From a bacterium (lineage in GTDB: Bacteria > Arandabacterota > Arandabacteria > Arandabacterales > JALGWA01), in contig JASFEA010000001.1 of NCBI GenBank assembly GCA_050125095.1, forward strand, positions 1,389 to 65,388: a stretch of 64,000 nt of DNA, written 5' to 3'. Position 1 is the stretch's first letter; each line of letters begins with the position of its first letter. Shown piece by piece: positions 5,423-22,500 of this stretch. A program made the translations under genes and the position numbers. Under the pieces are notes generated by a model. That model was given only the letters and a program-made list of their open reading frames with translations. It was not told the origin of the DNA and made no database searches.

Positions 5423-5977
5423 TTACTTGGGCGGAAAACCGGCCAGGATTCTGTCGACGACCTTGTCTATGTTCTTCTGTGCGTCCTCGGGAGTGCTGTA
5501 GCCCTTCACTATGGCGGTCCCCAGTCCCCTCCAGGCCAGCTCCTTGGTCCCGACGTCCACGAAGTCGATAACAAGGGTGCCTTCGGTGTAGTAGCTGACG
5601 TCTGTGTGGCCGCCATAGGGTCCCCACCACGGGTCGTAACTGTAATATCCGGAGTAGCCCCCGTAATTGGTAACCTGCATTTTCTCCTGGGTGCCCGCGT
5701 GAATCACTACCGCGAAGTCGGCGTTCTCGGGGTCGTCCACCATGGCAAAACCCCTGGCCTTCAGGTCCCTGTTCACGGACTCGGCGACGCGCTTGGCGAC
5801 CAGCGGGTAATCGGCCAGTGAGCTTCCTTCAATGACTCCGCTGTCTCCGACCCAGGCGTAAGTCTTGTACTTGCTGAAATCGACGTCCGGGTCGTAATCG
5901 GTCTTGACATCGACTGACGAACACCCGGCCAGCATAGCCAGTAAGAGGAAGGCTGAAGCTGCGGCAACCAGTCTCAT
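5423..5977 (-). CDS. DUF4136 family lipoprotein
   Basis: Lipoprotein signal MRLVAAASAFLLLAMLAGCSS, then the DUF4136 signature (DYDPDVDFSKYKTYAW ... ADFAVVIH ... GTLVIDFVD). The internal Met after a track ORF extension was chosen as the start. Confidence 0.7.
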   Translation of the reverse strand: MRLVAAASAFLLLAMLAGCSSVDVKTDYDPDVDFSKYKTYAWVGDSGVIEGSSLADYPLVAKRVAESVNRDLKARGFAMVDDPENADFAVVIHAGTQEKMQVTNYGGYSGYYSYDPWWGPYGGHTDVSYYTEGTLVIDFVDVGTKELAWRGLGTAIVKGYSTPEDAQKNIDKVVDRILAGFPPK

Positions 5978-6082
5978 TTTAATACCTCCTTGCTTTCCAT
6001 CGACTTGCCCCGGTGGATCCTGTGCGCGCTTATTGTAAATGCGGTCCTGCAGCGTGTCAACCATAATAGCCGCGCTTTGGAT

Positions 6083-7705: not shown

Positions 7706-8392
7706 ATGAAGCACAATGGTTTCAGCAAGCTCAAGTTTCTTTCGGCGGGTGCGGTGGCGTCGGCTGGAGTTGTCCTCCTGCTGCTGCTCTGCTCGTGCTA
7801 TCCGAGCTCCGACTTCAACTCGGTGGCCGACTACGACGTAGTGCTGACGCTTTACGATGAGGAACAGGACTTCAACGAGTACGTCACCTACTACATGGAG
7901 GACACCGTCTACCATTACAGGGACCCGGAGGACACATCCGACGACAATCTCAGCCGGGCACATGACGCGCTCATAATAGCCACGATCAAGTCCAACATGA
8001 ATGATCTGGGGTATCAGTTCAAGGCGGACGCCGACTCGGCGGACCCATCGGACCTCTACATAGTGGTGGGAGCGTCATCAAGCGACTGGTACAGCGTATG
8101 GTACCCGTATTACCCCTCATATCCGGGCTGGGGCTGGTGGGGCCCCGGCTGGTGGTGGGGCTATCCCGGGCCGCCTCAGGTCTCCTACGCGTACACTACC
8201 GGCACGCTTTCCATAGACATGTGGGACGCCAAGAACGCCGACGAGGACTATGAGATCGTGCCCGTGCCCTGGGCTGCGACCGTGAACGGCATATTGAATG
8301 ATAAATCGGCGGGCGTGGGAAACCGGATCGAGGACAGCGTAAATCAGGCGTTCGCACAGTCACCGTACCTTGGAACGAGCGAGGGGAGGTAG
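7706..8392 (+). CDS. DUF4136-like lipoprotein, divergent paralog A
   Basis: Lipobox LLLLCSC. Contains DYDVVLTLYDEE ... IVVGASSSDW ... TGTLSIDMWD. It carries a W/G/P-rich insert (YPGWGWWGPGWWWGYPGPP). It is paralogous to the 16494-17171 gene. Confidence 0.65.
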   Translation: MKHNGFSKLKFLSAGAVASAGVVLLLLLCSCYPSSDFNSVADYDVVLTLYDEEQDFNEYVTYYMEDTVYHYRDPEDTSDDNLSRAHDALIIATIKSNMNDLGYQFKADADSADPSDLYIVVGASSSDWYSVWYPYYPSYPGWGWWGPGWWWGYPGPPQVSYAYTTGTLSIDMWDAKNADEDYEIVPVPWAATVNGILNDKSAGVGNRIEDSVNQAFAQSPYLGTSEGR

Positions 8393-8398
8393 ACAGAT

Positions 8399-8995
8399 AT
8401 GAAATACGTACTTGCGATTCTGCTGTTGCTCGCCCTCTCTTCGTCGGCGCAAGCCTTTAGTTCCATGGGAGGGGCCACCTACAACGTGTCATTCGCGCTG
8501 GGCGACACGCGGGAGTTCATAGACGCGGTGAGCTGGAGGGGCTGGAACCTCGAAGGCCGTTGGTTCCATAACGATAATCTCTCTTTCGGACTCTCCTGGC
8601 ACTGGACCACCCTTCACGAGCAGGAGACCGGCACGTGGCCCGTAGAGGGAGGTCATGTGACAGGCGGCCAGTTCAGGCGGATAAGCACATCGCCCTTCCT
8701 GGTGAATACGCACTGGCACTTCGTCAACACCCGCGACCGCTACCAGAAATACATACCCTATCTGGGAATGGGTCTTGGCGCTTACTGGATCGAGACCCGG
8801 CACGAGATAGGCGTCTTCGCATTTGAGGACCGCAACTGGCACTTCGGGCTCGCTCCCGAGGCCGGGATGTTCGTCAACCTGAAGTTCGAGACCTATCTGA
8901 TGGTAACGCTGAGATATAATTACGCATTCAAGTCGGGTAGCGCGGAGAGCATGCAGTACGTCGCGCTCATGGTGGGACTGGCTTATCTGGAGTAG
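8399..8995 (+). CDS. Small predicted outer-membrane beta-barrel protein (OmpW/OmpA-beta-barrel-like), paralog A
   Basis: Signal peptide LLLLALSSSAQA. About 180 aa of alternating beta-strand pattern. Shares the GDTREFI motif with the 17175 paralog. The C-terminal aromatic-rich strand is LMVGLAYLE. The start is 7 nt after the DUF4136-like gene. Confidence 0.55.
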   Translation: MKYVLAILLLLALSSSAQAFSSMGGATYNVSFALGDTREFIDAVSWRGWNLEGRWFHNDNLSFGLSWHWTTLHEQETGTWPVEGGHVTGGQFRRISTSPFLVNTHWHFVNTRDRYQKYIPYLGMGLGAYWIETRHEIGVFAFEDRNWHFGLAPEAGMFVNLKFETYLMVTLRYNYAFKSGSAESMQYVALMVGLAYLE

Positions 8996-9041
8996 GCGGC
9001 CTGAGGACTTGCGGTCCGGTCGGGCCGGGTGGGATAATGAA

Positions 9042-9063
9042 GGGGCGTGCTTCGGCACGCCCC
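9042..9063 (+). terminator. Stem-loop ggggcgtgc-TTCG-gcacgcccc downstream of the 8399-8995 gene
   Basis: Perfect 9-bp GC-rich stem with a TTCG tetraloop, 47 nt after the stop codon. No U-run follows, so this is a terminator-like or RNA-stability hairpin. Confidence 0.4.
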
Positions 9064-9116
9064 TCTGCCAGATGTGAGTTGACTCGAGCCCGCTTTTCGA
9101 ATACGCTGAGCGCCGG

Positions 9117-9470
9117 TTGGTATCTGAACCTCAGTCATCCTTCATCTGTGAGGTAACGTCTATGCGACGATCAGGTATAGTCTGCGGCCCCCTTGTCGTC
9201 TTTCTGGCGACAGGTATTCTCGTCGGCGCTCTCGCCGGGGACGTCCAGGCGCGCACGGAGACTGTCGGCGTTGTCAGCGATGGGCCGGTTTCGATGGCTG
9301 CTGTCACAACAATCATGGGAATGATACCGCTTCCGGGTGGCGCGTTCTCCGCCGCCATGGCTGTGACCATAATGGCGGGGTCTCGGCGTGGCCACGGTTC
9401 TGGTCCTGGTGGTCTTGCCGGTGCTCTATGCTGTAATCTTCAGGGTACCGGCGCGAGAGGCCTGGACGTA
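9117..9470 (+). pseudogene. Remnant of the C-terminus of an RND (AcrB/CzcA family) efflux permease, frameshifted
   Basis: Frame 0 encodes ...AAVTTIMGMIPLPGGAFSAAMAVTIMAG, then the +1 frame continues GLGVATVLVLVVLPVLYAVIFRV. Together these match the last TM helices of AcrB (LMTSLAFILGVMPL...GAGSGAQNAVGTGVMGG MVTATVLAIFFVPVFFVVV). The frame switches at the GGGG run near 9377. The rest of the roughly 1000-aa pump is absent. Confidence 0.5.
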
Positions 9471-9528
9471 AGCAGGCGAAGACGTCGGCTGCTTTAGTAC
9501 AGCGTGGAGTATTAGCAGGGGAGGCGTA

Positions 9529-10356
9529 TTGAGACTTACGGGCCCCGGCGGAATCCATCACTACGTGGAGCGATTCCTGCGCTCCAATTCAAGCAGATTC
9601 GCAGGAAAGACGGTCGTAGATATTCCGGCAGGGACGGGGCGTTCTTCGGACGTGTTACGGAGCCTGGGAGCCCGGGTTGAGGCCTTCGACCTCTTTCCGG
9701 AGTCGTTCGCGGTGGATGGCCTGGAATGCAGGAAGGCCGACCTATCGCGTGACATCCCTCTTATGAGCGGCGCGGCGGATTATGTGCTCTCTCAGGAAGG
9801 AGTCGAGCATATTCCCGACCAGGTCGGCATGTTCCGAGAGTTCAATCGCATTCTCAAGAAAGGCGGCGGTCTCTTAATCACAACTCCCAACTATTCCAAC
9901 CTGAGAATCAAGATCGGGCAGCTTCTTTCGGAAAGCGAATACGCGTATAAGAAGATGCCGCCCAATGAACTGGACTCGATCTGGGGGCACGGCGCCGAAT
10001 GTGGTGATGTCTATTATGGGCATGTGTTCCCTGTCGGTATACAGAAACTGCGACTGCTCGCGAGGGTGGCCGGTTTTGCGATCAAGAAGGTCCACCGTAC
10101 CCGGGTGAACGGCTCTTCACTTGCCCTGATGTTTCTTTTCTATCCCCTGATTCTGACGGTGAATTATCTCGCGTATCTGAGGGCGATCGCGAAGCGAAAG
10201 GAAATTCCAATCGAGCAAAAGAGAGAGGTGTACGGCGAGGTCCTGAGATATGGAATCGACCCGCGAATTCTCCTCGACGGCTATCTGTTTGTGGAGTTCG
10301 AGAAAGAACATGAGGTCTCCGAGGAATTCTCGCGCCTGAGGGACAGGGACGCATAG
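9529..10356 (+). CDS. Class I SAM-dependent methyltransferase
   Basis: Motif I VVDIPAGTGRSS, the acidic residue after beta-2 (EAFDL), and motif post-I/II ...NRILKKGGGLLITTPN. The ORF begins with a non-ATG or leucine codon in the track, so the start is uncertain. Confidence 0.65.
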   Translation: MRLTGPGGIHHYVERFLRSNSSRFAGKTVVDIPAGTGRSSDVLRSLGARVEAFDLFPESFAVDGLECRKADLSRDIPLMSGAADYVLSQEGVEHIPDQVGMFREFNRILKKGGGLLITTPNYSNLRIKIGQLLSESEYAYKKMPPNELDSIWGHGAECGDVYYGHVFPVGIQKLRLLARVAGFAIKKVHRTRVNGSSLALMFLFYPLILTVNYLAYLRAIAKRKEIPIEQKREVYGEVLRYGIDPRILLDGYLFVEFEKEHEVSEEFSRLRDRDA

Positions 10357-10365
10357 AGATATGTC

Positions 10366-10393
10366 TTGACGGGTTGTGGAGCGTCACTAGACT
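10366..10393 (+). promoter_or_regulatory. Sigma-70-like promoter candidate TTGACG-N16-TAGACT
   Basis: Located 44 nt upstream of the 10437 start. Follows the same TTGACR/TAGNNT pattern seen at four other intergenic sites in the window. Confidence 0.35.
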
Positions 10394-10436
10394 CTGAGAC
10401 ATAGATGTCGGATTTAAGACAGGGAGAGATACACAT

Positions 10437-11279
10437 ATGACAATCCGGAAGACTTCGCTAGTGCTGCTTGCTTTACTGGTCTGTTTCTGTCCCGCGCTGG
10501 CTGCTGATGACGGCGTGGCAGAGCTGCCCTGGGAGAAGGGGTCCGTGAACCTGGGCGCGTACATGGCCGACCTCAACAGCTCTTTTCGCCTGGGGCTCGA
10601 CAATGTGGGACTCGGTCTCATTCTCGATACTGAGAAGTTTCTCGGGATGAAGGCCAATGACTACGCCTTCCGCGTCGGGGGCGCATACCGTATGGGCGAG
10701 AGCATGCGGCATAAGTTCGAGTTCGTATGGTTCAGCTTCGACCGGCGCTCTGAGAAGGAGATCACTGAAGATATAGAGCTGCCCCCGGAGCTGGGCGGAG
10801 ACACGCTCTACGTGGGCACGACGATCACCAGCACCTTCAAGTTCGACATAATAAAGGCCAAGTACAAGTATTCGATTGTACTCGACAACCGGGTCGACAT
10901 GAATGTCGGGTTGGGCTTTTATGTAATGCCGGTGACGATAGGTCTCGGGAAGAAGGGTGAGGAGCTCAAGTCTCAGGACATCACCGCGCCGCTCCCGGTT
11001 TTCGGTCTTGGCGTCGATGTGATCCTCACGCCCCGCTGGTTGCTCAAACAGAACCTGGACATCTTCTTCCTTAAGATCGGCAATTTCAGGGGGTCCATAC
11101 TGAACGCCCAAATGGCGCTCGAATACTCCAGATGGAAACACTGGGGAGTGGGGGCGGGCGTCGACGGGCTGCAGCTCAAGGTAGAGGCAGACGGCGACGA
11201 CTACCCGCTTATGGATTTCGTCGGGTCCCTTCAATTCTCTTATTTCGGCGCCCAGCTGTATGTCAAGTTCCTGTATTGA
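10437..11279 (+). CDS. Predicted secreted/outer-membrane beta-barrel protein (hypothetical)
   Basis: Signal peptide LVLLALLVCFCPALAADDG. Beta-strand-rich composition. C-terminal LYVKFLY has terminal aromatic residues. Confidence 0.5.
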   Translation: MTIRKTSLVLLALLVCFCPALAADDGVAELPWEKGSVNLGAYMADLNSSFRLGLDNVGLGLILDTEKFLGMKANDYAFRVGGAYRMGESMRHKFEFVWFSFDRRSEKEITEDIELPPELGGDTLYVGTTITSTFKFDIIKAKYKYSIVLDNRVDMNVGLGFYVMPVTIGLGKKGEELKSQDITAPLPVFGLGVDVILTPRWLLKQNLDIFFLKIGNFRGSILNAQMALEYSRWKHWGVGAGVDGLQLKVEADGDDYPLMDFVGSLQFSYFGAQLYVKFLY

Positions 11280-11315
11280 TCTGGCAGGTTTCAGGTCTGC
11301 CGCTGTGACGCGCAT

Positions 11316-11344
11316 TTGACACGCGGACGCGGTCTGGATATATT
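11316..11344 (+). promoter_or_regulatory. Sigma-70-like promoter candidate TTGACA-N17-TATATT
   Basis: The spacing is optimal (17 nt). Located about 25 nt upstream of the 11369 start. Confidence 0.4.
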
Positions 11345-11368
11345 CTGCCAGGGGCACTCCTTTCCAAT

Positions 11369-12478
11369 ATGCGGAAGGTCGGTATGAAGAGAATCTTGCT
11401 GCTTGCCGTGTTCCCGATTGTTCTCGCCTTAACCGTTCCCGCCCGCACCGCTACTCCGGATGAAAACCTGGAGGAGGCCATCGATTACCTGGTGGAGTTC
11501 GTCCGGACTTCGGATGTCGTATTCATACGTAACGACAAGGAGCACAATCCGGAAGAGGCGGCCTCGCATATGCTCAAGAAATACAAGTACGCAAAGAGGA
11601 AGGTGAAGACCCCCGAGGATTTCATCAGGTACTGCGCCACCGAGAGCACGATGAGCGGGAAGCCCTACCGTGTGAGGCTTGAGGACGGCAGAACCATTAC
11701 GTCTGAGGAGTGGCTGCTCGCGGCGCTCGAAGACTACAGGAGAGCCGACGGGGGTGAGGGTTTCGTCTTCGAGATGAGGGAGTTCCGCAAGCAGTATGGC
11801 ACCTGTCCGGCGCCGCAGGAGGACTGCGCGTCGGTAGTGGTGCGCTACCCGGAAATAAGCGGGGCGGACGCGAATTCCGCCATGGGAGCGATCGCCCGCG
11901 ATATCATGGCGCGCCTGGTGGCTCCCGTGTATGAGGATACGGAGCCCGGCACTCTTGCGGAGCTGGCCGATACCTTCATTGGGGCCTACAAGAACATGCA
12001 GACCGATTTCCCGGACTACAGGCTGGGCTGGATGCTCGAAAGAGAGGCCTCGGTCGAGTTCACGTGTGACTCTCTTGTCTCCATCGCCTACACCGAGATG
12101 TCCTTTGCGGGGGGCGCCCATCCCAACTCCAGGAAGAGATTCGCCAACTACCGGATGTCGGACGGCTCGTTGATCGATCTTAAGGATATCCTGGTTGAAG
12201 GGTACCGGAAGCAACTCACGAGGGCGGCGGAGATGGCCTTCAGGGCGGACAGACAACTGGATGAAGACGACAGCCTCGAGGAGGCCGGCTTCTGGTTCGA
12301 GGGCGGCGAGTTTGATCTGAATGACAACTTCGGTATCGCTGCCGGCGGACTCGTTTTTCACTTCGGTTATTACGAGATCGCGCCCTATGCTATGGGGCCG
12401 ACGGAGATTGTCGTGCCTTACGATAAGATATCTTCATTTATACGGGCGGACGGGCTTCTAAAAGGAGTTGTCAGGTGA
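11369..12478 (+). CDS. Exported hypothetical protein with DUF3298-like (RsiV-type, GGAHP motif) C-terminal region
   Basis: Signal peptide ILLLAVFPIVLALTVPA. The C-terminal region contains ...YTEMSFAGGAHPNS..., which is reminiscent of DUF3298/DUF4163. The N-terminal domain is unassigned. Confidence 0.5.
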   Translation: MRKVGMKRILLLAVFPIVLALTVPARTATPDENLEEAIDYLVEFVRTSDVVFIRNDKEHNPEEAASHMLKKYKYAKRKVKTPEDFIRYCATESTMSGKPYRVRLEDGRTITSEEWLLAALEDYRRADGGEGFVFEMREFRKQYGTCPAPQEDCASVVVRYPEISGADANSAMGAIARDIMARLVAPVYEDTEPGTLAELADTFIGAYKNMQTDFPDYRLGWMLEREASVEFTCDSLVSIAYTEMSFAGGAHPNSRKRFANYRMSDGSLIDLKDILVEGYRKQLTRAAEMAFRADRQLDEDDSLEEAGFWFEGGEFDLNDNFGIAAGGLVFHFGYYEIAPYAMGPTEIVVPYDKISSFIRADGLLKGVVR

Positions 12479-14844
12479 AATCTATTATCACTGCTTTGAC
12501 GGTGGTGGTGGGCCTGGCCGGCCCGTCGACTGCATCGGGCGCGATAGAGTGGCCTCAGCAGATCGACACGGCCGAGGCCACTATTGTCATATACCAGCCC
12601 CAGCTGGAGTCATTTGAGGGGAACAAACTGTCCGCGCGGGCGGCCGTTTCGGTTAAGGGCCGCGAAGCCCAGGAGCCCGTCTTCGGGGCCGCCTGGGTGG
12701 ACGCCAGGGTATCGACAGACACCGATGAGAGGACAGTGCATCTGATATCGGCTGAAGTCACGGCGGTCAAGTTCCCCGAGGCGACGGACGAGCAGGTCGA
12801 GTGGTTCAAAGGGGTGGTGAAGGCGGAGATCGAGAGCTGGGGTCTGACGATGTCGCTTGACCAGCTCATAGCTGACCTAGACCTCACGGAGAAGGAGATA
12901 GCAGCCTCCGAGAACCTCAAAAACGATCCCCCCCGGGTCATTTACAGAACCGAGCCCGCGGTCCTGGTCCTGATCGACGGCGACCCGGTTCTACAGGATG
13001 TCGAGGAAGGCCTCAAGGCGGTCGTGAACACGTCATTCTTCATAGTCTACGACACGCAATCTGAGACGTATTATCTGACGGGAGGCGATTACTGGTACTC
13101 GACCAATAACCTCGAAGGTGAGTGGAGGCAGATCGATTCGCCGCCGAAGAAAATCAGCGACCTGGCCGCTGAGATGCAGATGATGTCAGAGGACGACATG
13201 GAGAAGGTCTCCGCGGCGATGGACAGCGCGGGTTTCTCGGCCGATGTCGCCCCTGAGATCGTCGTTGCCGACGAGCCCGCAGAGCTCATCGTCTCTGACG
13301 GAGCCGCAGATTTCGCGCCGATTGAGGGGACGGGTCTCCTCTATATGACCAACTCCGAGACGGACATCATAATGGTGATAGACAGCCAGAAGTACTACGT
13401 GCTTCTGGCCGGCCGCTGGTATGCGTCGGAAAAAATGTCGGGGGGTACCTGGGCTTTCGTTCCCCCGGACGATCTGCCGGAGGACTTTGCAAGCATCCCC
13501 GAGGACTCGGACATCGGAGAAGTGAGGGCGAGCGTCCCGGGCACGGTGGAGGCCAAGGAGGCCGTGCTCGAGAACCAGATCCCGCAGACGGCGGCGGTGC
13601 ACCGAGACAGCGCGGCGGTGGAGGTCACCTATGACGGAGATCCGGAGTTCGAGAAGTGCGGCGACTCGGGTGTTTATTATGCGAAGAATACCGACAAAGC
13701 CGTGCTCATGATTGACAGGACCTATTACTGCTGTGACGACGCGGTCTGGTTCGTATCCGGCTCGCCCGACGGACCTTACGAGGTAGCGGACGAAGTGCCC
13801 GATGAGATAAGGACGATGGGCCCGGAGTGCCCTCACTATAACGTCAAGTATGTCTATATATATGATTCCACGCCTGAAGTCGTCTATGTGGGTTACACGC
13901 CCGGATACACCTGCTCTTATGTGTACGCGGGGACAGTCGTCTACGGCACGGGATGGTGGTACCGGCCATGGTGGGGCACATATTATTATCCGAGGCCTGT
14001 GACCTGGGGGTTCGGAGTCCACTACAATCCCTATACCGGCTGGGGCTTTTCCTTCGGTATGAGCTTCGGGTGGGTGGGATGGCGTTGGGGTTGGTGGGGA
14101 CCGCATTATGGCGGTTGGTGGGGACCGGGGGGTTATCGATGGGGTTACAGGCACGGCTATCGGCACGGATATTATCATGGTTACCGCCATGGATACTATG
14201 CCGGACGACGCGCGGGCTATGTTCATGGTCGCGCCGACGCCGCGCTCCGTAATCATAATAACATTTACAGAAACAAGCCGGGAGTGAGGCCGGCGGACCG
14301 CCCCGTTACGCGGCCGTCCACCCGACCGTCGACGCAGCCATCGACCCGGCCGTCGACCCGGCCGTCCACGCAGCCATCGACGCGGCCGTCCACGCAGCCG
14401 TCCACCCGGCCGTCGACGCAGCCATCGACCCGGCCGTCGACGCAGCCATCGACGCGGCCGTCGACGCAGCCATCGACCCGGCCGTCGACAATGCCGGCAT
14501 CCCCTGCGGATGGTTCGACTATGGACAGGAGTAGACCTGCCCAGACTCAGAATAATGTGTTTGCCGACAAGAACGGCAATGTCTACAGAAAGACCGACAG
14601 CGGGTGGCAGTCGCGGGACGGGGGCAACTGGAACAGCCCCGACAGGTCCTCGCCGAGTACGAGGCAGAATTTCAATAGCAATAGATCAGATCTCAACCGG
14701 CAGTCCATGGCGCGCGACCGTGGGAATCAGAGGACCCAGACCTATAATAACTGGCAGAGCACCCAGCCCGCGGGCCGGCAACGGCCCCAGACCCAGCAGC
14801 GGCCGAGCGGCGCAAAGGGCGGGAGCAACCGCACGCGCAGGTGA
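12475..14844 (+). CDS. Large secreted hypothetical protein with a Trp/Gly/Tyr-rich segment, PST[RQ]P tandem repeats and an N/Q/R-rich tail
   Basis: Signal peptide VVVGLAGPSTASGA, a 789-codon ORF, and 4-nt overlap with the upstream gene. The composition is described under the findings. Confidence 0.6.
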   Translation: MKSIITALTVVVGLAGPSTASGAIEWPQQIDTAEATIVIYQPQLESFEGNKLSARAAVSVKGREAQEPVFGAAWVDARVSTDTDERTVHLISAEVTAVKFPEATDEQVEWFKGVVKAEIESWGLTMSLDQLIADLDLTEKEIAASENLKNDPPRVIYRTEPAVLVLIDGDPVLQDVEEGLKAVVNTSFFIVYDTQSETYYLTGGDYWYSTNNLEGEWRQIDSPPKKISDLAAEMQMMSEDDMEKVSAAMDSAGFSADVAPEIVVADEPAELIVSDGAADFAPIEGTGLLYMTNSETDIIMVIDSQKYYVLLAGRWYASEKMSGGTWAFVPPDDLPEDFASIPEDSDIGEVRASVPGTVEAKEAVLENQIPQTAAVHRDSAAVEVTYDGDPEFEKCGDSGVYYAKNTDKAVLMIDRTYYCCDDAVWFVSGSPDGPYEVADEVPDEIRTMGPECPHYNVKYVYIYDSTPEVVYVGYTPGYTCSYVYAGTVVYGTGWWYRPWWGTYYYPRPVTWGFGVHYNPYTGWGFSFGMSFGWVGWRWGWWGPHYGGWWGPGGYRWGYRHGYRHGYYHGYRHGYYAGRRAGYVHGRADAALRNHNNIYRNKPGVRPADRPVTRPSTRPSTQPSTRPSTRPSTQPSTRPSTQPSTRPSTQPSTRPSTQPSTRPSTQPSTRPSTMPASPADGSTMDRSRPAQTQNNVFADKNGNVYRKTDSGWQSRDGGNWNSPDRSSPSTRQNFNSNRSDLNRQSMARDRGNQRTQTYNNWQSTQPAGRQRPQTQQRPSGAKGGSNRTRR
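14305..14492 (+). repeat. In-frame tandem repeat, 15-nt unit (PSTRP/PSTQP) about 12 copies, equal to a 30-nt unit about 6 copies
   Basis: DNA ccgtcgac[cg]c[ag]gcc[ga]tc... repeats in phase with the ORF, giving RPSTRPSTQPSTRPSTRPSTQPST.... The opposite-strand track ORF 14306-14500 is its shadow. Confidence 0.85.
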
Positions 14845-14867
14845 AATGTCGGCGGGTCCTGAGGACG

Positions 14868-14920
14868 TTGCGCATTTTCAGACCTGACCCCGGCTGTTGT
14901 GCATTTTCAGACCTGACCCC
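14868..14920 (-). repeat. Two direct copies of a 24-nt element (minus-strand reading GGGGTCAGGTCTGAAAATGC[GA]CAA) with period 29
   Basis: Plus strand has TTGCGCATTTTCAGACCTGACCCC at 14868-14891 and TTGTGCATTTTCAGACCTGACCCC at 14897-14920. The same element recurs at 50473-50497, see findings. Confidence 0.7.
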
Positions 14921-14981
14921 TACGATGACCACGTCTATTCTCTCCTGCGGCCGGCGGGGAAGCCGGGGGGAGAACGACCGC

Positions 14982-16106
14982 CTATTTCCGGGGACGCGTA
15001 GCGACCCGGTAAGCGGCGAGCCCGGCGAAGATGGCCCCGATGAGTATCAGGCCCCTCCAGAAGGCGTGGTCCACCACCGCTCTTGTGCGGGCCTCGTAAT
15101 CTGCCGCGGCGCCGTCCACAGTCTTCTGGAGCTCGGCGAGCACCGGTTCCAGGTCGGTGCTCAGGCCCGCGAAAGCCTCAATCCTCTGGTTTCGGATTCC
15201 GTCGACAAGCGTCACTCCCAGCCTGTCGAATCCACCCGAGATGGACGAGTTGACGTCGTCTATTGACCCTGCAGTCCTTCCGAAACCCCCTGACAGGGAG
15301 TTGTCCATCCTGTCGAGGCTCCCGCGTAGCTCGGAGATGTCCCTGAAAGCGACCTGGATGTCCTCGACCTCCATGAGGCCCAGCGAGGCGAGCTCCAGCT
15401 GCCACTGAACCTGCCTGGGGATTATGTCGGTGTAAACGGTCAGGCGCATCCGCAGCTCCTGGACGCTCTCCTCCAGGGACTCGAAACCCGCGGTCCAGTC
15501 CGGCTTCTGGGCGACCATCACCCCGGCGACAAGGGGAATGACCGAGTCGCGAATGAAGAAGTGACTCTGAACGGGGTGATCCTGGGCCCAGCCATAGACG
15601 TCATGTCTTACCGCGGCAACCCCGTCATCGCCCAGTGCCAGCGCTGCAATGCCGGCGAGTTCCCTCTCCATGCCTTCGGCCGCCTCGAGGGCGATGGCCT
15701 GCCCCTCGCCGAAGGCCCCGGCTCCCGGGCCGGTGGCGAAGTAGTCCCTCATCTGTACGGTGAGCACCCACGTATCGATGAGCGCCGCATAGGGGTCCAG
15801 CCTGAACATGGCCTTGTGATAGGCCGGTATGGCATAGATCTTCCACAGCAGTGCCTGCTTATAGATCTCGGGGTCGTCCGTCCCCGCGTCTATCCTGTAG
15901 GCGGCCTCCTCGATCAGAACAGGATAGCGCACCGCGAATTCGTGCATCCTTATCCTGAGTTCGGCCGCCGACATGTCCCTGACACCGGCATGCTCCATGA
16001 GGGGCGTCATGCCGGGGGACGAAGAGCAGGCCGATACACAAAGCAAGGCGATTGCGGTCAAGGCCCTCACAGGGGCCTGCCCGTGGAGCCTCAAGGACGC
16101 ATTCAT
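14982..16106 (-). CDS. Hypothetical lipoprotein/membrane-associated protein
   Basis: The internal start MNASLRLHG... gives a lipoprotein-like signal (ALLCVSACSS). Contains repeated SxSGGF[GD]R segments and a C-terminal TM helix GLILIGAIFAGLAAY. The track ORF extends to 16181. Confidence 0.5.
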   Translation of the reverse strand: MNASLRLHGQAPVRALTAIALLCVSACSSSPGMTPLMEHAGVRDMSAAELRIRMHEFAVRYPVLIEEAAYRIDAGTDDPEIYKQALLWKIYAIPAYHKAMFRLDPYAALIDTWVLTVQMRDYFATGPGAGAFGEGQAIALEAAEGMERELAGIAALALGDDGVAAVRHDVYGWAQDHPVQSHFFIRDSVIPLVAGVMVAQKPDWTAGFESLEESVQELRMRLTVYTDIIPRQVQWQLELASLGLMEVEDIQVAFRDISELRGSLDRMDNSLSGGFGRTAGSIDDVNSSISGGFDRLGVTLVDGIRNQRIEAFAGLSTDLEPVLAELQKTVDGAAADYEARTRAVVDHAFWRGLILIGAIFAGLAAYRVATRPRK

Positions 16107-16493
16107 ATGTATCCTCCCGCGATATGCTCTTTGTTGCGCTTCCTGCTCTTTATAGCACAGAAGCCCGGAGTTTGCGAGCACCTAATGCCTCAGGCCAGCC
16201 ATCGCTCATCAAGGGGTCACCGCTTCCGTAGACAGGACGCCGTGGATCGGTGTATCGTTACCGGAAAGGGCTTGTCACATATGACCTACCGGGGCAAGGT
16301 GTATATACTGGCCTGGATGTTGTCATTGACGGCCCATCTATCGGCGTGAGCTTCTTCTGTTGAGGGCGGCGGGAGGGGCCGCCCGGCCGCGGAACGGAGC
16401 TGTTCCGGATTCGCTCGAGTCCGTCTTGGTTCTGGACGATTCTTTATGCATGGGTTAGTGTTAGGGTAAGTGGTGGTGAAGGAGGATGGCCAT

Positions 16494-17171
16494 ATGAGAA
16501 TCAGAGGGCTCAGAATTTGCGCCATCAGGGCCGCCGTCGGCCTGATTGCGGCTGCCCTGGGAAGCGTCATGCTCGCGTCGTGCACCCCCGAGGGCGCCTT
16601 CCAGAACGCCGAGGACTATGATGTCGTGGTGACGCTCTACGATAAGGAAACCGATTACGGCTCCATACGGACTTACCTTATGCCCGATTCGGTGGTGCAT
16701 TTCCAGGATCCCCAGAATCCGGGCCAGTCTCTCACGCATGACTACGATGACCTCATTCTCGAGAGGGTGGAGTATAATCTCCAGGCAATAGGCTACAGGA
16801 GGGAGAGTGACCCCGAGAACGAGGACCCCGACATAATCGTCATGGTCTCGGCCACTTCGTCCGACTGGCAGGCGTATAGTTACCCCTGGCTTCCCAGGTG
16901 GGGATGGTGGGGCCAGTGGCCTGGCGGAACCACAGACTGGTATTACCAGAGTCCGTACTACGGCAGCGGAGGCGTGTATACTTTCTCAACGGGCACGCTT
17001 CTTATCGACATGGGTGACATCAGGGAAGCGGATGAGGAAGAGGAGATGAAGGGGATCTGGACGGCCGCCATGAACGGCGTGCTTATGGAGGAAGCCTCGG
17101 GCGCTCCCCAGAGACTGGTCGACTTCATCGACCGGGCTTTCAGCCAGTCGCCATACCTAGGAGCGGACTGA
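16494..17171 (+). CDS. DUF4136-like lipoprotein, divergent paralog B
   Basis: SD AAGGAGGA lies 7 nt upstream of ATG 16494. Lipobox MLASCT. Contains DYDVVVTLYDKE ... IVMVSATSSDW ... PRWGWWGQWPGG ... TGTLLIDMGD. Colinear with the 7706-8392 gene. Confidence 0.65.
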   Translation: MRIRGLRICAIRAAVGLIAAALGSVMLASCTPEGAFQNAEDYDVVVTLYDKETDYGSIRTYLMPDSVVHFQDPQNPGQSLTHDYDDLILERVEYNLQAIGYRRESDPENEDPDIIVMVSATSSDWQAYSYPWLPRWGWWGQWPGGTTDWYYQSPYYGSGGVYTFSTGTLLIDMGDIREADEEEEMKGIWTAAMNGVLMEEASGAPQRLVDFIDRAFSQSPYLGAD

Positions 17172-17174
17172 TAG

Positions 17175-17780
17175 ATGAAGAACAACCTGCTGGCCGCACT
17201 GATTGCGTTGCTCATATTGATTTCCTCGGCACCTGCCGCCGTCGGCCAGGGATCGCTTACGAGCCTGTCCTGGGACCCGTCGTTTCCCACGGGCGATACC
17301 CGGGAGTTTATAGGCAAGTTCTCCTGGCGAAGTTTCGGTCTCGACGTCAAGGGGTTCATGACGCCGCGTTTTGCAATGGGCGCGTCTTTTGACTGGCGCC
17401 TATTCAACGAAGTGAGCAGCAAGACAATAGAGATCGAGGACGGCCATGTGAGCGGCACCCAGACACGCCGGCTGTATGCGATTCCCGTGCTTCTCACCAC
17501 GAGCTATTACTTCGGTTCATTCAGGGACTATCCCCGGTTTATACCCTATATCGGGGGCGGGGGAGGGGCGTACTATATAGAGGAGAAACTCGAAATCGGC
17601 GTCTATACGATGAAGCAGAAAGCCTGGAACTTCGGGCTCTGCGCCGAGATCGGGACGCTTTTCCAGTTCTCCTATGGATACGCCATGCTGCGGTTCAAGT
17701 ATCACTATGCATTCGAAAGTGAGGACGTCGCTCCGGTCTCGTGGTGGAGCGTGGGGATAGGCATAGTGGACACGCATTAG
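17175..17780 (+). CDS. Small predicted outer-membrane beta-barrel protein, paralog B
   Basis: Signal peptide ALLILISSAPAAVGQ. Shares the GDTREFI motif and is colinear with the 8399-8995 gene. The start is 4 nt after the DUF4136-like gene, the same cassette arrangement as paralog A. Confidence 0.55.
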   Translation: MKNNLLAALIALLILISSAPAAVGQGSLTSLSWDPSFPTGDTREFIGKFSWRSFGLDVKGFMTPRFAMGASFDWRLFNEVSSKTIEIEDGHVSGTQTRRLYAIPVLLTTSYYFGSFRDYPRFIPYIGGGGGAYYIEEKLEIGVYTMKQKAWNFGLCAEIGTLFQFSYGYAMLRFKYHYAFESEDVAPVSWWSVGIGIVDTH

Positions 17781-17868: not shown

Positions 17869-18432
17869 TCACTGGGCCTGCCCCGTGGGCGGGTAGAGCG
17901 CCATGACTTCCCGGACGATGTCTTTGATCATCTGGTCGGCCTCCTCCGGCGTCAGATTCTCAAGCACCTTCTGCGCCGAACCCCTCCAGACCAGCACCTT
18001 GGTGTTGGCGTCCACGAAATCTATTATGAGCGTGCCCTCCTGGTATTCATAAGTGTCCACGTTCCTAGTATTCCATCCCCAGTAGCGCCCGGTTGAGGCG
18101 TAGGAGTAGCCCCAGTCGGTGACGTCCACTTTATCTTCGACGCCGACGTGGTAGAACACGACGATGTCCGGGCTGGACGTCGTGGCGGTGAAACCCTTGG
18201 CCGCCATCTCGCTGTCTACCGCGCTTCGGATGCGCATGTCGGTTATATCGCCGGCGGTCCTCAGGTGCTCGGGGATCTTGTCCGGCGGCAGGACTTCATC
18301 GAGCCAGGCATAGGTCCTGTATACCGAGAAGTCCGCGGAGGTATCGTAGTCGGCGTTTACGGCTGTCTGCTGCGAGCAGGTCAATGCCACGGCAGCGAGG
18401 CAGAATAGCGCGAGGCAGGCGGCGAGTTTCAT
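17869..18432 (-). CDS. DUF4136 family lipoprotein
   Basis: Lipobox AVALTCSQ. Contains DYDTSADFSVYRTYAW ... DIVVFYH ... GTLIIDFVD. Colinear with the 5423-5977 gene. Confidence 0.7.
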   Translation of the reverse strand: MKLAACLALFCLAAVALTCSQQTAVNADYDTSADFSVYRTYAWLDEVLPPDKIPEHLRTAGDITDMRIRSAVDSEMAAKGFTATTSSPDIVVFYHVGVEDKVDVTDWGYSYASTGRYWGWNTRNVDTYEYQEGTLIIDFVDANTKVLVWRGSAQKVLENLTPEEADQMIKDIVREVMALYPPTGQAQ

Positions 18433-19542: not shown

Positions 19543-22500
19543 CTAGAGTGCCGTCTTGAGCCAGCGGCCCAGCCATTCCTTGAAGCCGCCGTACCTCGGC
19601 ATCAGGTCTTGAAGTTCCTCGATGCTGTTGACCCAGGTGGTCGTGGAGATCATGCCCAGAAAGTCAAGATAGGCCAGCATGGCCCCCCGCTGGCCCACGA
19701 CATAAAGCACTTCGGCATCCATGAACTTGCCGCGGTAGTTCTGGTTGTGTGAGCCCAGAGTGAGGTATATGACCATTCTCTCTATTTCCGCGGGCGTGTG
19801 CGCCTGGAAGAAGGCCGTCGTGACCCTGCCGGTGTCGTCAGACAGCTCGTCCCGGAGGTCTTCTGTGCTAACATACTCGTCCCTGCGGCTCGTCTGCTCC
19901 GCTCTGGCCAGGAAGTAGCTGAGTATAAGCTCACGCCAGCCCTCAACTCCGAGTATCCCGTCAAGGGCTTCCTGGGACACGAAGAACTGCGTTTTGAGAT
20001 GAAGCTTGGGCTTCCGGTTCTCGACGTCGGCCACGAGGTAGACCGGCTCGTAGCCCTGGGCGACCAGGCGGTCGACTAGCTCATTGAGGACCCCGCGCAC
20101 GGACGGCTGGAAGGGCATGAGGTCGAGCAGCCAGGGGTTCTTCTTGAGCCCCTCCTGGACGCCCTCCGCATGAGCGATCTGGTTGCCGACGTCGACGTCA
20201 AGGTTGTAAACGCCTGTCCTGAAAAGCCCCCCGGCATGAGCTATGTCCTCTGCCATCTCCTCCTGTATCACCACAAACTTGGTGAAGAGCTCATTGGCGC
20301 GTGACATCTGGGGGACTCCGCTCGAGGGGGCGTTCTCGAGCGAAGGCGCGATCACGAGCACCTTGCATCCCCGGAAGGCGGCCCCGACGAGCATCCCTCC
20401 CCAGAAGGGGCTGTTCCAGAGGGAGTCCGGTATGTACATATGCGAGCCGGCTGGCATGAGATTGTACAGCACGGCCTTTACGAGGTTGGCGTGCTTGGGA
20501 TGGAGGTAGCCCGTGGCGTTGTGTGCCTGCATGGCTTGCTGAGTCCATCCCCGGGCAACCAGGTCCCCGACCATGTCAGTGTAATTGTCGGGCCTCCGAA
20601 TGGGGCGGAGGCAGGGAGGAATCTCACCCGGCTTGAATCCCTGCGAAAGGAGGACCTCTCGCGCCGCATGCTTGGTATAAACGGCGGCGGGCCCTCGAAC
20701 CAGCAGCGCCCTGTCGTCCCAGGTGGGCCCGGAGTAATGCTCGCCCACTCCCATCCCGGTGAACATTGACTCGCCGCGGCCGGGGTCGCGTTCGGTGACG
20801 TCGTAGAAACTTATCTTCCTGTGGTCCCTCATCACGTTGTCGGGCGCAAGCGGGAAGTAGTCAAAGAGATGGGAGGCCCTGAACGAAAGGTCCGAGGGGT
20901 TGGTGATATTCACATGCACTTTTATCTTGTTATAGAGCCAGTCCTTGCCGTATATCCTGAGTCCATTCTGCAGCTCTTCCGATTCGGCCACGGCCTTGCG
21001 CAATTCATCCTGTAGACTGAGTATCTCTTCTTCCCACCCCTCAAAGCCCCCGGGGAGGCTCATCCTGTGCCTAAGCGGGTCCGCGAGGAGCTCGAGCCAG
21101 AGCGCGCCGTCATTGACGGCGTAATAGAACTCGTCGATTATGATGATATATGTAGGTATTTTGCCCGTCTTATCGAACTCCCTGACCTTGTCGATGAGGG
21201 CCCGCATATATCCTTCAGTGGTCATGGCGTAGCCGACGGTGTCCGGCGTGCCGGCCGCGTTCACGCCCTTGTAGTCGTGAATCCAGAGGACGTGATAGTC
21301 CTCCGCCGCGTGTATCATGCGGTGGAGCTCCCACTGGAACTGCTCATTGATGATATAGTGAATGTCATTGCCCGTGGTCATCTCGGACTCGAGGAACTTC
21401 TCGAGAATGGCGTCAATCTCGCTCTGGGTGTCGTGGTCCTCAATTGTGAAAACGTAGTGGAGCGGCAGCCAGACCACCCGGGGCGTCCGCCAGAGCTTGC
21501 GCTGCCGGGCCCTGCTCTCATCCATGATCTCGATAAGGCGGTGAAAGACGTATTCGGCCGCCCTCACTTGCTCCCCGGGGAGGCCGGATGCCTCAAGCAG
21601 GTAATCGTGGAAGGCTTCTTCCGCCTCTGCCCCCAGTCCAAGCAGAGTGTCATTGGCCTTCCACTGGCCCAGGAGCCGGTTATAGGGAAGCACGACCTCC
21701 TCTAAGAGTATCTCCCTCGCCCTTACCGCGAGAGCGCTTCCGGCCTCTTCGCTGCCTGCGGCCAGGGTGAAGGCATGAATGAGGTTCCTGTGGTAGAACC
21801 GTATCTCGGCTTCGAAGGTGTGCCCCCCGGGGAAGTCCTCGTCGGTGGCGTAGTATTTCTCGCGGGCCTGAGCCAGCGCCTTCCGGAATTCAACGATGTC
21901 GCCCTCGTCGGAGCCGCGCTTGCGGTCGAGGAAAGGAGACGTGAAGTAGGTGATTTCTTCGGCTCCTTCGGAGATGTTGGCGAGCGCTTCCGCCAGTTCG
22001 GCCGACGGCCGGTATGGCTTCTCGAATGTGCGCCCGGGTTCGGGCGGCAGCGTCACATGGGCCAGCCGCGGCCGAGTCCTGCCCATATACGGCTGGCGGA
22101 GAGGCGTGACTATGCCGAAGTTATAGGACCTCCCGCGGCCTCCCGAAACGATGTCAAGCCGGAAGTCGCCGCCGCGCTGTATGGGCCCGCCCCTCCACAT
22201 GGGGAGCTGTATGTTCCAGATGAATCTCAGCGTCTCCTCCCTGAAGGAATAGTCCGCGCCGATGCCCAGGAGAAACGTCTTTACCGTGAAAAAACCGCGA
22301 AGGCCCCCGTCGGCTTCGGATTCTATCGCGGCGAGGTAAGCCTCGCCCATGAGGCCTATGCCCATGTTGGGATTTCCCAGGTCGCGGTAAACGCCCAGAA
22401 GGACCTCGCCGCCCCCGCGGGATTCCTCCTCGCGCCGGTCCCACTTGAGCATGGCCCCGGCGTAGGGCTTGTACTTGGAATGGAATCCCATGGACTTGAT

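Follow-up and report, generated by a model that had tools for sequence, protein, structure and literature searches.

A predicted exported FCB-group protein with a TULIP-like head, a variable spacer and a conserved aromatic block represents a large, undescribed family

Introduction

The 64,000-nucleotide stretch of bacterial DNA analyzed here (the window) encodes a 789-residue protein that changes character along its length. A globular N-terminal part gives way to a block rich in Trp, Gly, Tyr and His, then to a tandem array of Pro-Ser-Thr units and finally to a tail rich in Asn, Gln, Arg and Ser. A preliminary description, made from the sequence alone, regarded the C-terminal half as a disordered, prion-like or adhesin tail at a length-variable locus. 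The question raised by the locus is what kind of protein this is, and what its C-terminal half may do in the cell envelope.

Results

The gene, its start and its export signal

The gene spans positions 12475–14844 of the forward strand, begins with a GTG codon and maintains an intact reading frame. The elements at and upstream of its 5' end are:

11316..11344, + strand, candidate sigma-70-like promoter TTGACA-17 nt-TATATT, 11 of 12 consensus positions, ahead of the two-gene unit
11369..12478, + strand, upstream partner gene, exported product of 369 residues, stop codon overlapping the start of the 789-residue ORF
12462..12467, + strand, Shine-Dalgarno sequence AAGGAG, read from the sequence, 7 nt 5' of the GTG
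12475..12540, + strand, Sec-type signal peptide MKSIITALTVVVGLAGPSTASG, residues 1–22, read from the sequence, without a lipobox cysteine

The Shine-Dalgarno sequence favors the 789-residue start, which is also that of the NCBI product (MGD9400643.1, likewise 789 residues), over the JGI call of 782 residues, which begins at a TTG codon 7 codons downstream. The 782-residue version is recorded on two contigs with identical sequence and hence equal repeat number; one of these contigs is 69,730 bases long, and a look-up placed the version on a contig of 22,388 bases from sample 3300042731. Together, the intact frame, the Shine-Dalgarno sequence and the agreement of the protein sequence between the two contigs and NCBI establish the ORF as real.

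The signal peptide, predicted from sequence, agrees with the earlier proposal that the protein is exported. A hydrophobic h-region precedes the WPR landmark in 88 of 99 family members, and a lipobox-like motif occurs in five of the 99. By these features the protein is Sec-exported, and its location is probably the envelope. Neither Pfam nor NCBIfam models revealed a T9SS C-terminal sorting domain (Por_Secre_tail or similar) in the protein, which terminates in GGSNRTRR. AF2 predicted no outer-membrane β-barrel, and the C-terminus is basic rather than an aromatic β-signal.

Genomic context

Translational coupling to the upstream gene, claimed previously, is borne out by a 4-nt GTGA overlap with the upstream stop codon. 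The same holds for the description of the upstream product as exported and DUF3298-like, since it matches Pfam DUF3298 (E 1.2e-18) in addition to DUF5329 (E 1.6e-26) and PdaC (E 5.9e-07). The promoter candidate is the best consensus site within 9000–16500; it is a consensus match and may not be the promoter type of this lineage. The pairing with the upstream gene is retained only in two close relatives (loci L001 and L002) and not family-wide. Across 88 loci no conserved neighbor was found, the commonest occurring in 10, and genomic context therefore lends little functional support. Envelope genes are abundant around the locus. Among the recurrent neighbors of family members are candidate small outer-membrane barrels, DUF4136 lipoproteins, MscS and TamA/TamB. 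No link to glycoside hydrolases or polysaccharide-utilization loci was found in the 88 loci. Elsewhere in the window, positions 26162–29707 encode a genuine T9SS cargo protein with a sorting domain.

A large FCB-group family with a shared layout

By sequence comparison the protein is representative of a very large family from the FCB group that is unannotated and has never been described. The search yielded more than 3,305 homologues. Those listed are mostly full-length, and the top ones cover 93–100% of the query at 50–73% identity. The number of 50%-identity clusters is 2,095 at E <= 1e-30, 4,355 at 1e-10 and 6,376 at 1e-3. At least 595 species genomes encode relatives, and all 80 retained loci bearing a taxonomic label belong to the FCB group. 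With one exception, each of the 88 loci has a single copy of the family gene. The family-defining alignment (A1) contains 72 invariant columns, and the 150 best representatives follow the family profile collinearly, nearly all of them matching over most of their own length. Full-length members combine a signal peptide, head, three repeats, aromatic block, linker, NNVY hairpin, helix and basic end. A search for homologues with the same layout had been proposed earlier; the whole layout recurs in thousands of them and is thus not a chance feature. The parts of the mature protein are:

12550..12915, + strand, TULIP/YceB-like domain, residues 26–147, curved β-sheet and long helices
12916..13830, + strand, three homologous β repeats of ~90 residues (148–232, 255–345 and 366–452), all acidic
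13831..14109, + strand, aromatic block A, residues 453–545, with glycine zipper G524-x3-G528-x3-G532
14110..14244, + strand, aromatic block B, residues 546–590, (G-Y-x-x)n, Arg/His-rich
14245..14544, + strand, variable linker, residues 591–690, housing the tandem array
14314..14493, + strand, tandem array (PST[R/Q/M])15, 15 x 12 nt, from TRF and a table of units
14545..14760, + strand, C-terminal element, NNVFADKNGNVYRK..W hairpin sheet (residues 691–722) and long helix (723–762)
14761..14844, + strand, basic tail ...GGSNRTRR and stop codon; family consensus GGGRRR (C-termini of 88 loci)

The protein divides into halves of opposite charge, with a net charge of −56 over residues 23–454 and +33 over residues 455–789. 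This dipole is kept family-wide, with medians of −39 and +32 (n=154).

The acidic head

AF2 models residues 21–475 with a pLDDT of ~90. In the predicted model of the first domain a long helix is wrapped by a strongly curved antiparallel sheet, the arrangement of the TULIP fold, and the segment is acidic (pI 4.25 for residues 23–147). TULIP Pfam models, including DUF1439, gave no match at E <= 10 on residues 24–147, and 3l6i was not among the PDB sequences retrieved by a profile search. As in the TULIP families used for comparison, namely YceB/DUF1439, DUF4403, DUF2140, DUF2993 and P47/OrfX (PMC6791001 and PMC5507252), the domain would reside in the diderm envelope. A lipoprotein anchor is described as a majority feature of YceB and DUF4403 in PMC6791001; the present protein, in contrast, has a signal peptide without a cysteine and is not a lipoprotein. 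It further differs in that the TULIP-like domain is fused to three β repeats and, beyond them, to an extended C-terminal half of aromatic and basic character, an arrangement that the sections consulted in PMC6791001 and PMC5507252 do not describe for TULIP families.

The three central repeats proved homologous to one another, and each closes with a YY..G.WY.S...G.W hairpin. These aromatic hairpins within the β repeats resemble CBM5/12 motifs. Membership in CBM5/12 is not supported, neither the Pfam models nor the CBM5/12 fold being matched.

The aromatic block

The sequence of the aromatic block is exactly as quoted in the preliminary description, which likened it to mineral- or polysaccharide-binding or amyloid-type segments. 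Binding of mineral or polysaccharide, or of an amyloid type, is conceivable for the block. A fast-evolving adhesive or amyloid segment is not supported by the conservation pattern, as conservation in the protein peaks in block A, where 54% of columns are at least 90% conserved. The zipper glycines G524, G528 and G532 show little or no variation across the family, and eight glycines follow at a period of 4 in block B (G553 to G581). On the Wimley-White interfacial scale residues 523–541 reach −13.5 kcal/mol, making them the most favorable 19-mer among the 125 ORFs of the window. AF2 assigns block A a pLDDT below 50, block B likewise a low confidence, and the block modeled alone a pLDDT of 35; a model without confidence fits membrane insertion, oligomerization and ligand binding alike.

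The glycine spacing at 524–532 (GxxxGxxxG) and 553–581 is reminiscent of glycine-zipper and deca-GX3 (Yae1/Lto1) sequences. The Pfam Yae1_N (deca-GX3) model matches the protein with 13.5 bits (E 0.058), below the gathering score of 27.5 bits, and gives sub-threshold matches in 19 of 26 family members (best E 2.3e-5); the GX3 periodicity itself is present. Those sequences have small or aliphatic residues between the glycines, whereas Tyr, Arg and His fill these positions here. The zipper of block A is presumably comparable to the membrane glycine zippers of the SlyB/YMGG type.

The spacer and its tandem array

The array had been described as about 12 in-phase repeats of 15 nt. It consists instead of 15 units of 12 nt, with a super-period of 24 nt corresponding to PSTQPSTR. 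The near-identity attributed to its DNA units does not hold for the array as a whole, which contains eight distinct 12-mers with TRF matches of 77% for the 12-nt period and 87% for the 24-nt period; it holds only for units 9–14, which make up three almost identical 24-nt copies. Comparison of the units pair by pair gave 156 differences in P/S/T codons, every one of them synonymous, indicating that the peptide was retained while the DNA drifted.

The suggestion of a length-variable locus stands at the evolutionary scale, between relatives. Independent expansions, in the form of tandem arrays of RP(S/A)T type with periods of 7 to 16 residues, occur in ~41 of 154 family members, and at the array site the closest relative (P0002) carries just a handful of RPST units. 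P0002 and P0271, members of the same 90%-identity cluster, differ by 8 residues in the linker, a difference that can be read from the sequences as one PSTRPSTG unit. In a second such pair (P0012 and P0274, also sharing a 90%-identity cluster) a 13-residue linker unit is present twice versus once. Because the 12-nt unit is in frame, slippage lengthens or shortens the product and cannot serve as an on/off switch for expression.

As a Pro/Ser/Thr-rich, repetitive and length-variable spacer between modules, the linker is like the (EP)n(KP)n segment of TonB and the PT boxes of cellulases. The PST[RQ] unit, however, is cationic, and there is no sequence relationship to these linkers (Pfam PT repeat, E 2.4); the analogy would be one of function.

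The C-terminal tail

The tail is N/Q/R/S-rich, as reported (R 16%, S 13%, N 13%, Q 12%). Its description as disordered, prion-like or adhesin-like disagrees with its conserved motifs and with the AF2 prediction for residues 690–762, a small sheet followed by a long helix at a pLDDT of 82–92. The helix bears the LNRQSMARDRGNQR motif. The motifs shared family-wide in alignment A1 are NNVYxDxNGNVYR..W, LNR..R.RG.QR and the terminal GGGRRR. In some members, for example that of locus L012, a repeat array sits between the hairpin and the helix.

Remote similarity to DUF3300

Profile comparison with hhalign aligns block A with the C-terminal part of DUF3300 (PF11737), the family of E. coli YacH (b0117), at probabilities of 73–87% and E values of 3e-5 to 4.5e-6. 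The 73% alignment (E 3e-5) extends over 65 columns with 43% identity, and the probability is 86.5% with the C-terminal halves alone. Against YacH alone it is 34%, and composition-matched control regions, the Trp-rich loops of DUF4136, score 1–5%. The DUF3300 segment tested, P.VVYVP.YNPTVVYG.W..P.YPP.Y.PPP...GFG.GV, aligns with block A along the pattern P-x-V-V-Y-V...Y-N-P-T-V-V-Y-G-x-W...Y-P-P...G-F-G-x-G-V. The Pfam DUF3300 model did not match the full 789-residue protein or its segments at the gathering score; applied to the block, it gave a sub-threshold match in one of 26 members (E 4.3), while YacH itself scores 264 bits. One family member is named 'DUF3300 domain-containing protein' by NCBI.

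The similarity is confined to the ~65 C-terminal columns. The DUF3300 head, a LAPVALYPDALLSQVL...WDPSVKSLVAFP core (LAPVALYPD...WDPSVKSLVAFP...FLAQ), is absent, and its place is taken by the TULIP-like domain and three β repeats. Trp, Tyr and Gly are also much more abundant in the FCB-group block, which has the additional (GYxx)n stretch. Six DUF3300 proteins and alignment A3 were inspected against the family C-termini; in both families the aligned segment precedes a low-complexity N/Q/R-rich tail with a glycine-rich end in RR. For the tails, hhalign gave no significant alignment. DUF3300 occurs in Enterobacteriaceae and Burkholderiales (organism-named relatives among the matches listed), whereas the present family belongs to the FCB group. 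Both comprise exported, functionally uncharacterized proteins of the envelope, a location that is presumptive for the FCB family. We consider the aromatic block to be remotely similar, and perhaps distantly related, to the C-terminal part of DUF3300/YacH. YacH is CpxR-regulated, and deletion of yacH alters survival on the cationic peptide protamine (PMC9600279).

Discussion

The reading that we favor, though tentatively and with less than even confidence, is that of an exported envelope protein in which a cationic aromatic membrane anchor is joined by a length-tunable spacer tether to an acidic lipid-binding head. It has to be weighed against other uses of the same parts. The protein could bind carbohydrate or cell wall through CBM5/12-like repeats, with the block as a flat aromatic platform on peptidoglycan, chitin or another polysaccharide. 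Several members are named 'carbohydrate-binding family V/XII' in NCBI and UniProt, the hairpins that end the repeats are of suggestive appearance, and the block strands would have one aromatic and one Gly/Ser face. Moreover, glycoside hydrolases are over-represented among PDB proteins with Trp-rich low-complexity regions (PMC7004392). Nonetheless, Pfam CBM_5_12 gives no match even at E <= 10, the 88 loci have no tie to glycoside hydrolases or polysaccharide utilization, and residues 523–541 are hydrophobic, with a membrane-like score on the octanol scale, all of which make carbohydrate binding unlikely. Also improbable is a self-assembling scaffold, in which the block and the Tyr/Arg- and N/Q-rich tail drive homo-oligomerization, as glycine-zipper helices, an oligomeric β structure, an amyloid-like stack or an envelope condensate, and the head is merely displayed. 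Self-associating low-complexity sequences resemble the block in their Tyr/Arg/Gly/His composition, the block resists folding as an AF2 monomer despite its extreme conservation, and both GxxxGxxxG and (GX3)8 are present, along with the sub-threshold Yae1_N deca-GX3 dimerization motif. Against this, low-complexity regions of condensates or amyloids are seldom conserved so strictly, and the tail contains confidently modeled secondary structure. Self-assembly and membrane anchoring, in addition, do not exclude each other.

A surface or biofilm adhesin with a disordered, prion-like, phase-variable tail, in line with the adhesin-type tail of the preliminary description, appears very unlikely. It would account for the low-complexity composition, the tandem repeats and the differences in repeat length among relatives. 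For delivery to the surface, however, the protein has neither a T9SS C-terminal domain nor a lipobox nor an autotransporter barrel; the sorting domain is missing from the family even though the same window encodes real T9SS cargo. A family that is full-length across several phyla and nearly always single per locus is likewise unlike adhesins, and the purely synonymous P/S/T codon differences, the identity of the two recorded contigs and an in-frame array that changes length without on/off switching all speak against this reading. An assembly or annotation artefact, either a collapsed repeat or a pseudogene, is the least credible explanation and extremely improbable. The 180-nt array does exceed a typical short read, so that units could have been miscounted, but the frame is intact, family motifs continue past the array to the usual basic C-terminus, the sequence is identical on both contigs, and the eight distinct 12-mers differ enough to anchor an assembly.

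If the protein is a tethered envelope protein, as we prefer, the aromatic cationic block would partition into the interfacial zone of an anionic membrane of the envelope, be it the outer membrane (inner leaflet) or the inner membrane (periplasmic face). Its glycine faces might, in addition, let it self-associate. The reach of the head would depend on the extended PST-rich spacer, the length of which would shift by replication slippage, and the acidic head would bind a hydrophobic ligand, for example a lipid or an acyl chain. A bolder and rather doubtful extension is that the block and the basic tail form a widespread, unrecognized module for envelope anchoring or self-assembly, shared by two very large families, the FCB one and proteobacterial DUF3300/YacH, that in the FCB group tethers a TULIP-type lipid-binding head. 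Should these proposals be correct, the family would be a new part of outer-membrane lipid handling or of envelope-stress defense, and would add a new component in phyla where such envelope systems are poorly known.

Gene boundaries and transcription unit

The open reading frame at 12475–14844 on the forward strand is intact and encodes 789 amino acids, in agreement with the preliminary description. Its GTG start lies on the TGA stop of the upstream gene, giving the 4-nt overlap GTGA already reported. The upstream gene (11369–12478, +), previously called DUF3298-like, encodes a 369-residue product that matches DUF5329, PdaC and DUF3298. The combination is unusual in that DUF5329, an enterobacterial domain of the PRK10318 type, is joined to a PdaC + DUF3298 module resembling RsiV. 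Two signals accompany the pair:

11316–11344: strong sigma-70-like site (TTGACA, 17-nt spacer, TATATT), near-consensus, in front of the upstream partner
12462–12467, +: Shine–Dalgarno sequence AAGGAG, preceding the GTG start

Because of the overlap, the Shine–Dalgarno sequence and the sigma-70-like site, the two genes look like a single transcription unit. The pairing is lineage-specific and is retained in close relatives only. Within the 137 nt that separate the target's stop (14844) from the convergent gene (14982), a simple scan listed no forward-strand terminator-like site. That convergent frame (14982–16181, reverse strand, 399 aa) has a lipoprotein-like N-terminus (…LLCVSAC…) and matches neither Pfam nor NCBIfam models.

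The NCBI annotation contains the identical 789-residue product with the GTG start at 12475 (MGD9400643.1). The JGI annotation contains a 782-residue version that begins at a TTG seven codons downstream (12496); it is recorded on two contigs, of which one measures 69,730 bases, and a contig of 22,388 bases was shown to carry it. The GTG start is favored by the Shine–Dalgarno sequence and by a lysine ahead of the hydrophobic core of the signal peptide.

Domain architecture

An AlphaFold2 model of the protein was built with an 86-sequence alignment. It is confident at residues 21–475 and 690–762, and the pLDDT falls below 50 at residues 490–690. The following segments were delineated:

Residues 1–22: Sec-type signal peptide without a lipobox
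Residues ~26–147: curved sheet and long helices (AlphaFold2)
Residues 148–232, 255–345 and 366–452: three homologous β repeats, each ending in a YY..G.WY.S...G.W hairpin
Residues 453–545: aromatic block A, containing G524-x3-G528-x3-G532
Residues 546–590: (GYxx)n stretch with eight glycines at period 4
Residues 591–690: variable linker holding the PST[RQ] array
Residues 691–762: conserved hairpin sheet (NNVFADKNGNVYRK..W) and long helix (LNRQ..R.RG.QR)
C-terminus: basic, family consensus GGGRRR

The Foldseek search, queried with the whole model and giving matches without query ranges, ranked E. coli YceB (PDB accession 3l6i) first with a probability of 1.0, and this match was assigned to residues ~26–147 by secondary structure. 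TULIP Pfam models do not match the target, so the likeness to YceB and the TULIP proteins is at the fold level only. The three β repeats are mutually homologous, with hhalign probabilities of 98–99%. When the complete sequence and four parts of it were scanned with Pfam and NCBIfam, the only matches were FliH (E 0.003), Big_14, Yae1_N and PT, all far below cut-offs, and a profile search of PDB sequences yielded solely a chance match to a glycoside hydrolase motif (E 0.07). For residues 546–590, 19 of 26 members match Yae1_N, the deca-GX3 model, below its threshold. A Bacteroidota O-glycosylation sequon, fitted by the D-S-T in YDSTPEVVY, was dropped because its position varies across the family (E-S-T, D-Y-T).

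The aromatic sequence and the composition of the tail had been described correctly. Block A is the most conserved part of the protein, with 54% of its columns at least 90% conserved, versus 15–38% in the folded domains. The protein is a charge dipole: residues 23–454 carry a net charge of −56 (pI 4.05) and residues 455–789 a net charge of +33 (pI 10.75). Across 154 family members the dipole persists, the median net charges of the two halves being −39 and +32. A hydrophobic h-region is present in the signal peptides of 88 of 99 members and a lipobox-like motif in 5 of the 99.

An unannotated family in the FCB group

A search of 5.8 billion proteins returned more than 3,305 homologs, and those listed are mostly full-length (about 650–830 aa) and lack any precomputed Pfam domain. 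When 1.84 billion representatives were searched exhaustively with a profile, the matches amounted to 2,095, 4,355 and 6,376 clusters at 50% identity for E ≤ 1e-30, 1e-10 and 1e-3, respectively. The best 150 representatives are collinear with the profile, nearly all of them across most of their length. With each species represented by one genome, at least 595 genomes encode a relative. The 80 taxon-labelled loci kept come from Bacteroidota, Ignavibacteriota/Chlorobiota, Gemmatimonadota, Krumholzibacteriota, Latescibacterota and Eisenbacteria, and cultured hosts include Draconibacterium aestuarii, Mangrovibacterium lignilyticum, Labilibacter marinus, Maribellus species and Flavicella marina. Members are named 'hypothetical', 'carbohydrate-binding family V/XII' and, once, 'DUF3300 domain-containing'. 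Nothing on the family itself was found in the literature searched.

The repeat array and the variable linker

The array had been described as about 12 units of 15 nt; it consists instead of 15 units of 12 nt, encoding PST[R/Q/M], at 14314–14493, with a 24-nt super-period. Nor are the DNA units nearly identical, as had been stated, since 8 distinct 12-mers occur and only units 9–14 form three near-identical 24-nt copies. All 156 of the 156 pairwise differences at the Pro, Ser and Thr codons of the units are synonymous. These synonymous-only differences, together with the near-identity of units 9–14, indicate that the array is partly old, with its peptide maintained, and that its 3′ part expanded recently; the proposed recent expansion applies to that part and not to the rest.

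Tandem arrays based on RP(S/A)T occur in about 41 of 154 family members, with differing units and periods of 7, 8, 11, 13, 14 and 16 residues. The closest relative of the target (P0002, 73% identity) has a few RPST units at the site of the target's 15. A distant homolog (47% identity) from the Bacteroidetes MAG Dive100_bin4.30 has the same PSTRPSTQ tandem array as the target, but in its second linker, after the NNVY hairpin and before the helix. This placement points to an independent expansion of the same short unit. Linker lengths differ even between proteins of one 90%-identity cluster. P0002 and its cluster mate P0271 differ by 8 residues in the linker, which is read as one PSTRPSTG unit, and in another such pair (P0012 and P0274) a 13-residue linker unit occurs twice versus once. 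Given the differing arrays and these length differences between relatives, the linker is a slippage-prone, length-variable spacer across the family. The earlier suggestion of a length-variable locus therefore holds at the family scale; at the target locus itself, both recorded contigs carry identical sequence.

Relation to DUF3300 and YacH

The single 'DUF3300' name of a member prompted a comparison with E. coli YacH (DUF3300 is Pfam PF11737), whose sequence was fetched and whose DUF3300 domain spans residues 75–333 in Pfam.

Profile comparisons of the family and the aromatic block
Family profile vs YacH residues 240–304 (single sequence): probability 34%, E 4e-4
Family profile vs 20-sequence DUF3300 alignment: probability 73%, E 3e-5, 65 columns, 43% identity
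Family vs DUF3300, C-terminal halves only: probability 86.5%, E 4.5e-6
Control, block vs Trp-rich loops of neighboring DUF4136 proteins of the same composition: probability 1–5%

The aligned DUF3300 segment reads IEPANPQVVYVPAYNPTVVYGTWWYPSYPPVYLPPPPG..F...GIGFGIGV...W and that of the family IYDSTPEVVYVGYTPGY..SYVYGGCVVYGTGYWYRPWYG.YYYPRPVTYGF.VHYNPYTGWGFSFGVSYGW. In DUF3300 proteins, as in the family, the segment leads into a tail rich in N, Q and R, and the C-terminus is glycine-rich with a final RR. The likeness of the tails is in layout only, as their alignment is not significant, and the Pfam DUF3300 model does not reach the family. The N-terminal halves are unrelated. We read the comparison as one C-terminal module common to two families with different heads, which is probable but not proven.

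YacH is regulated by CpxR and repressed by protamine and cecropin A, and a yacH deletion mutant survives better with protamine (PMC9600279). This connection to cationic antimicrobial peptides and the Cpx envelope-stress response is the sole YacH phenotype in the papers searched, and YacH itself is uncharacterized.

Genomic neighborhood

The open reading frames of 88 loci with a family gene were clustered, and no conserved operon partner emerged, as no neighbor occurs in more than 10 loci. The recurrent neighbors are all envelope proteins:

MscS: 10 of the 88 loci
Small candidate outer-membrane barrel: 9 loci, directly upstream in 5; only weak OMP_b-brl or PagL matches
DUF4136 lipoproteins, with or without a ~200-residue partner: near family genes in several phyla

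In one locus (L006, GCA_040961665.1, 1389–10271) an Omp85 (TamA/TamL-like) gene and a 1,544-residue TamB gene stand immediately upstream of the family gene, on the same strand and with a 140-nt gap. As a single case, this arrangement gives no more than a hint that the family is connected with the assembly of outer-membrane lipids or proteins. A Gemmatimonadetes MAG (L082) carries two adjacent copies of the family gene, the sole tandem duplication in the 88 loci.

The 64-kb window is likewise rich in envelope genes:

5423–6064 (−), 7706–8392 (+), 16470–17171 (+) and 17869–18432 (−): four DUF4136 lipoprotein paralogs around the target
8399–8995 and 17175–17780: second proteins of a duplicated pair
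26162–29707 (+): peptidase C25 (gingipain-like), 1,181 aa, with propeptide and Por_Secre_tail; T9SS cargo

A six-frame reading of the window places the motifs WG[WY]WG, GWWG and WWGP in the target and three of the DUF4136 proteins only. The Trp-rich loop belongs to a DUF4136 protein of solved structure (PDB accession 4f54). Despite the common WGWWG-type motif, homology between these loops and the target block was rejected on the control comparison. The duplicated pair (7706–8995 and 16470–17780) consists of a DUF4136 lipoprotein with, immediately after it, a ~200-residue protein without a Pfam match, which looks like a small outer-membrane β-barrel; the pair also occurs near the family gene in L001 (the locus of a close relative), L046, L082 and L084. 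Several other phyla likewise have DUF4136 genes no more than 6 kb from family members. The reverse-strand frame at 19543–22611 (1,022 aa) has no Pfam match. Its counterpart by position in L001, a 1,021-residue gene also without a Pfam match, adjoins an Omp85/POTRA gene that is missing at the corresponding position in the window.

Proposed role and alternatives

Residues 523–541 (WGFSFGMSFGWVGWRWGWW) score −13.5 kcal/mol on the Wimley–White interfacial scale, the most favorable 19-mer among the 125 window frames of at least 150 aa, and are membrane-like on the octanol scale too. With the flanking Arg/His residues and the invariant glycine zipper, these scores make the block fit an interfacial membrane anchor. 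It may also self-associate, and self-assembly is one of the rival readings. An AlphaFold2 run on residues 430–600 alone (26-sequence alignment) gave a pLDDT of 35 and is unusable. In a further rival reading the block would present its aromatic residues as a surface that binds peptidoglycan or a polysaccharide. Carbohydrate binding more generally is what the 'family V/XII' names imply; the YY..G.WY.S...G.W hairpin probably explains those names, and a CBM5/12 identity of the target was rejected against both the Pfam models and the fold. A role as an adhesin is a further rival, judged unlikely, and an assembly or annotation artefact is the least likely one. The C25 peptidase, a cargo with a proper sorting domain, shows that type IX secretion is present in the organism; a sorting domain of that kind is absent from the target, which has a Sec-type signal peptide.

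The function that we infer is as follows. The target would be exported and anchored at an envelope membrane. The anchor would be the cationic aromatic C-terminal module related to DUF3300, and it would hold an acidic TULIP-like head via a length-tunable PST-rich tether. Taken as a whole, this mechanism is tentative, and we place it somewhat below an even chance. The descriptive part (gene, family, architecture and spacer behavior) is given high confidence. The nearest known kinds are the bacterial TULIP proteins and the DUF3300-type tails.

A family with thousands of members across the FCB lineages named above has neither a Pfam nor an NCBIfam model. The domain map, the lipid-binding-like head and the link to the equally obscure proteobacterial DUF3300/YacH are new for it, and the misleading 'carbohydrate-binding family V/XII' names are corrected. 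Should this common C-terminal module prove to be an anchor in the membrane or an assembly device, two large groups of 'hypothetical' envelope proteins would be explained together.
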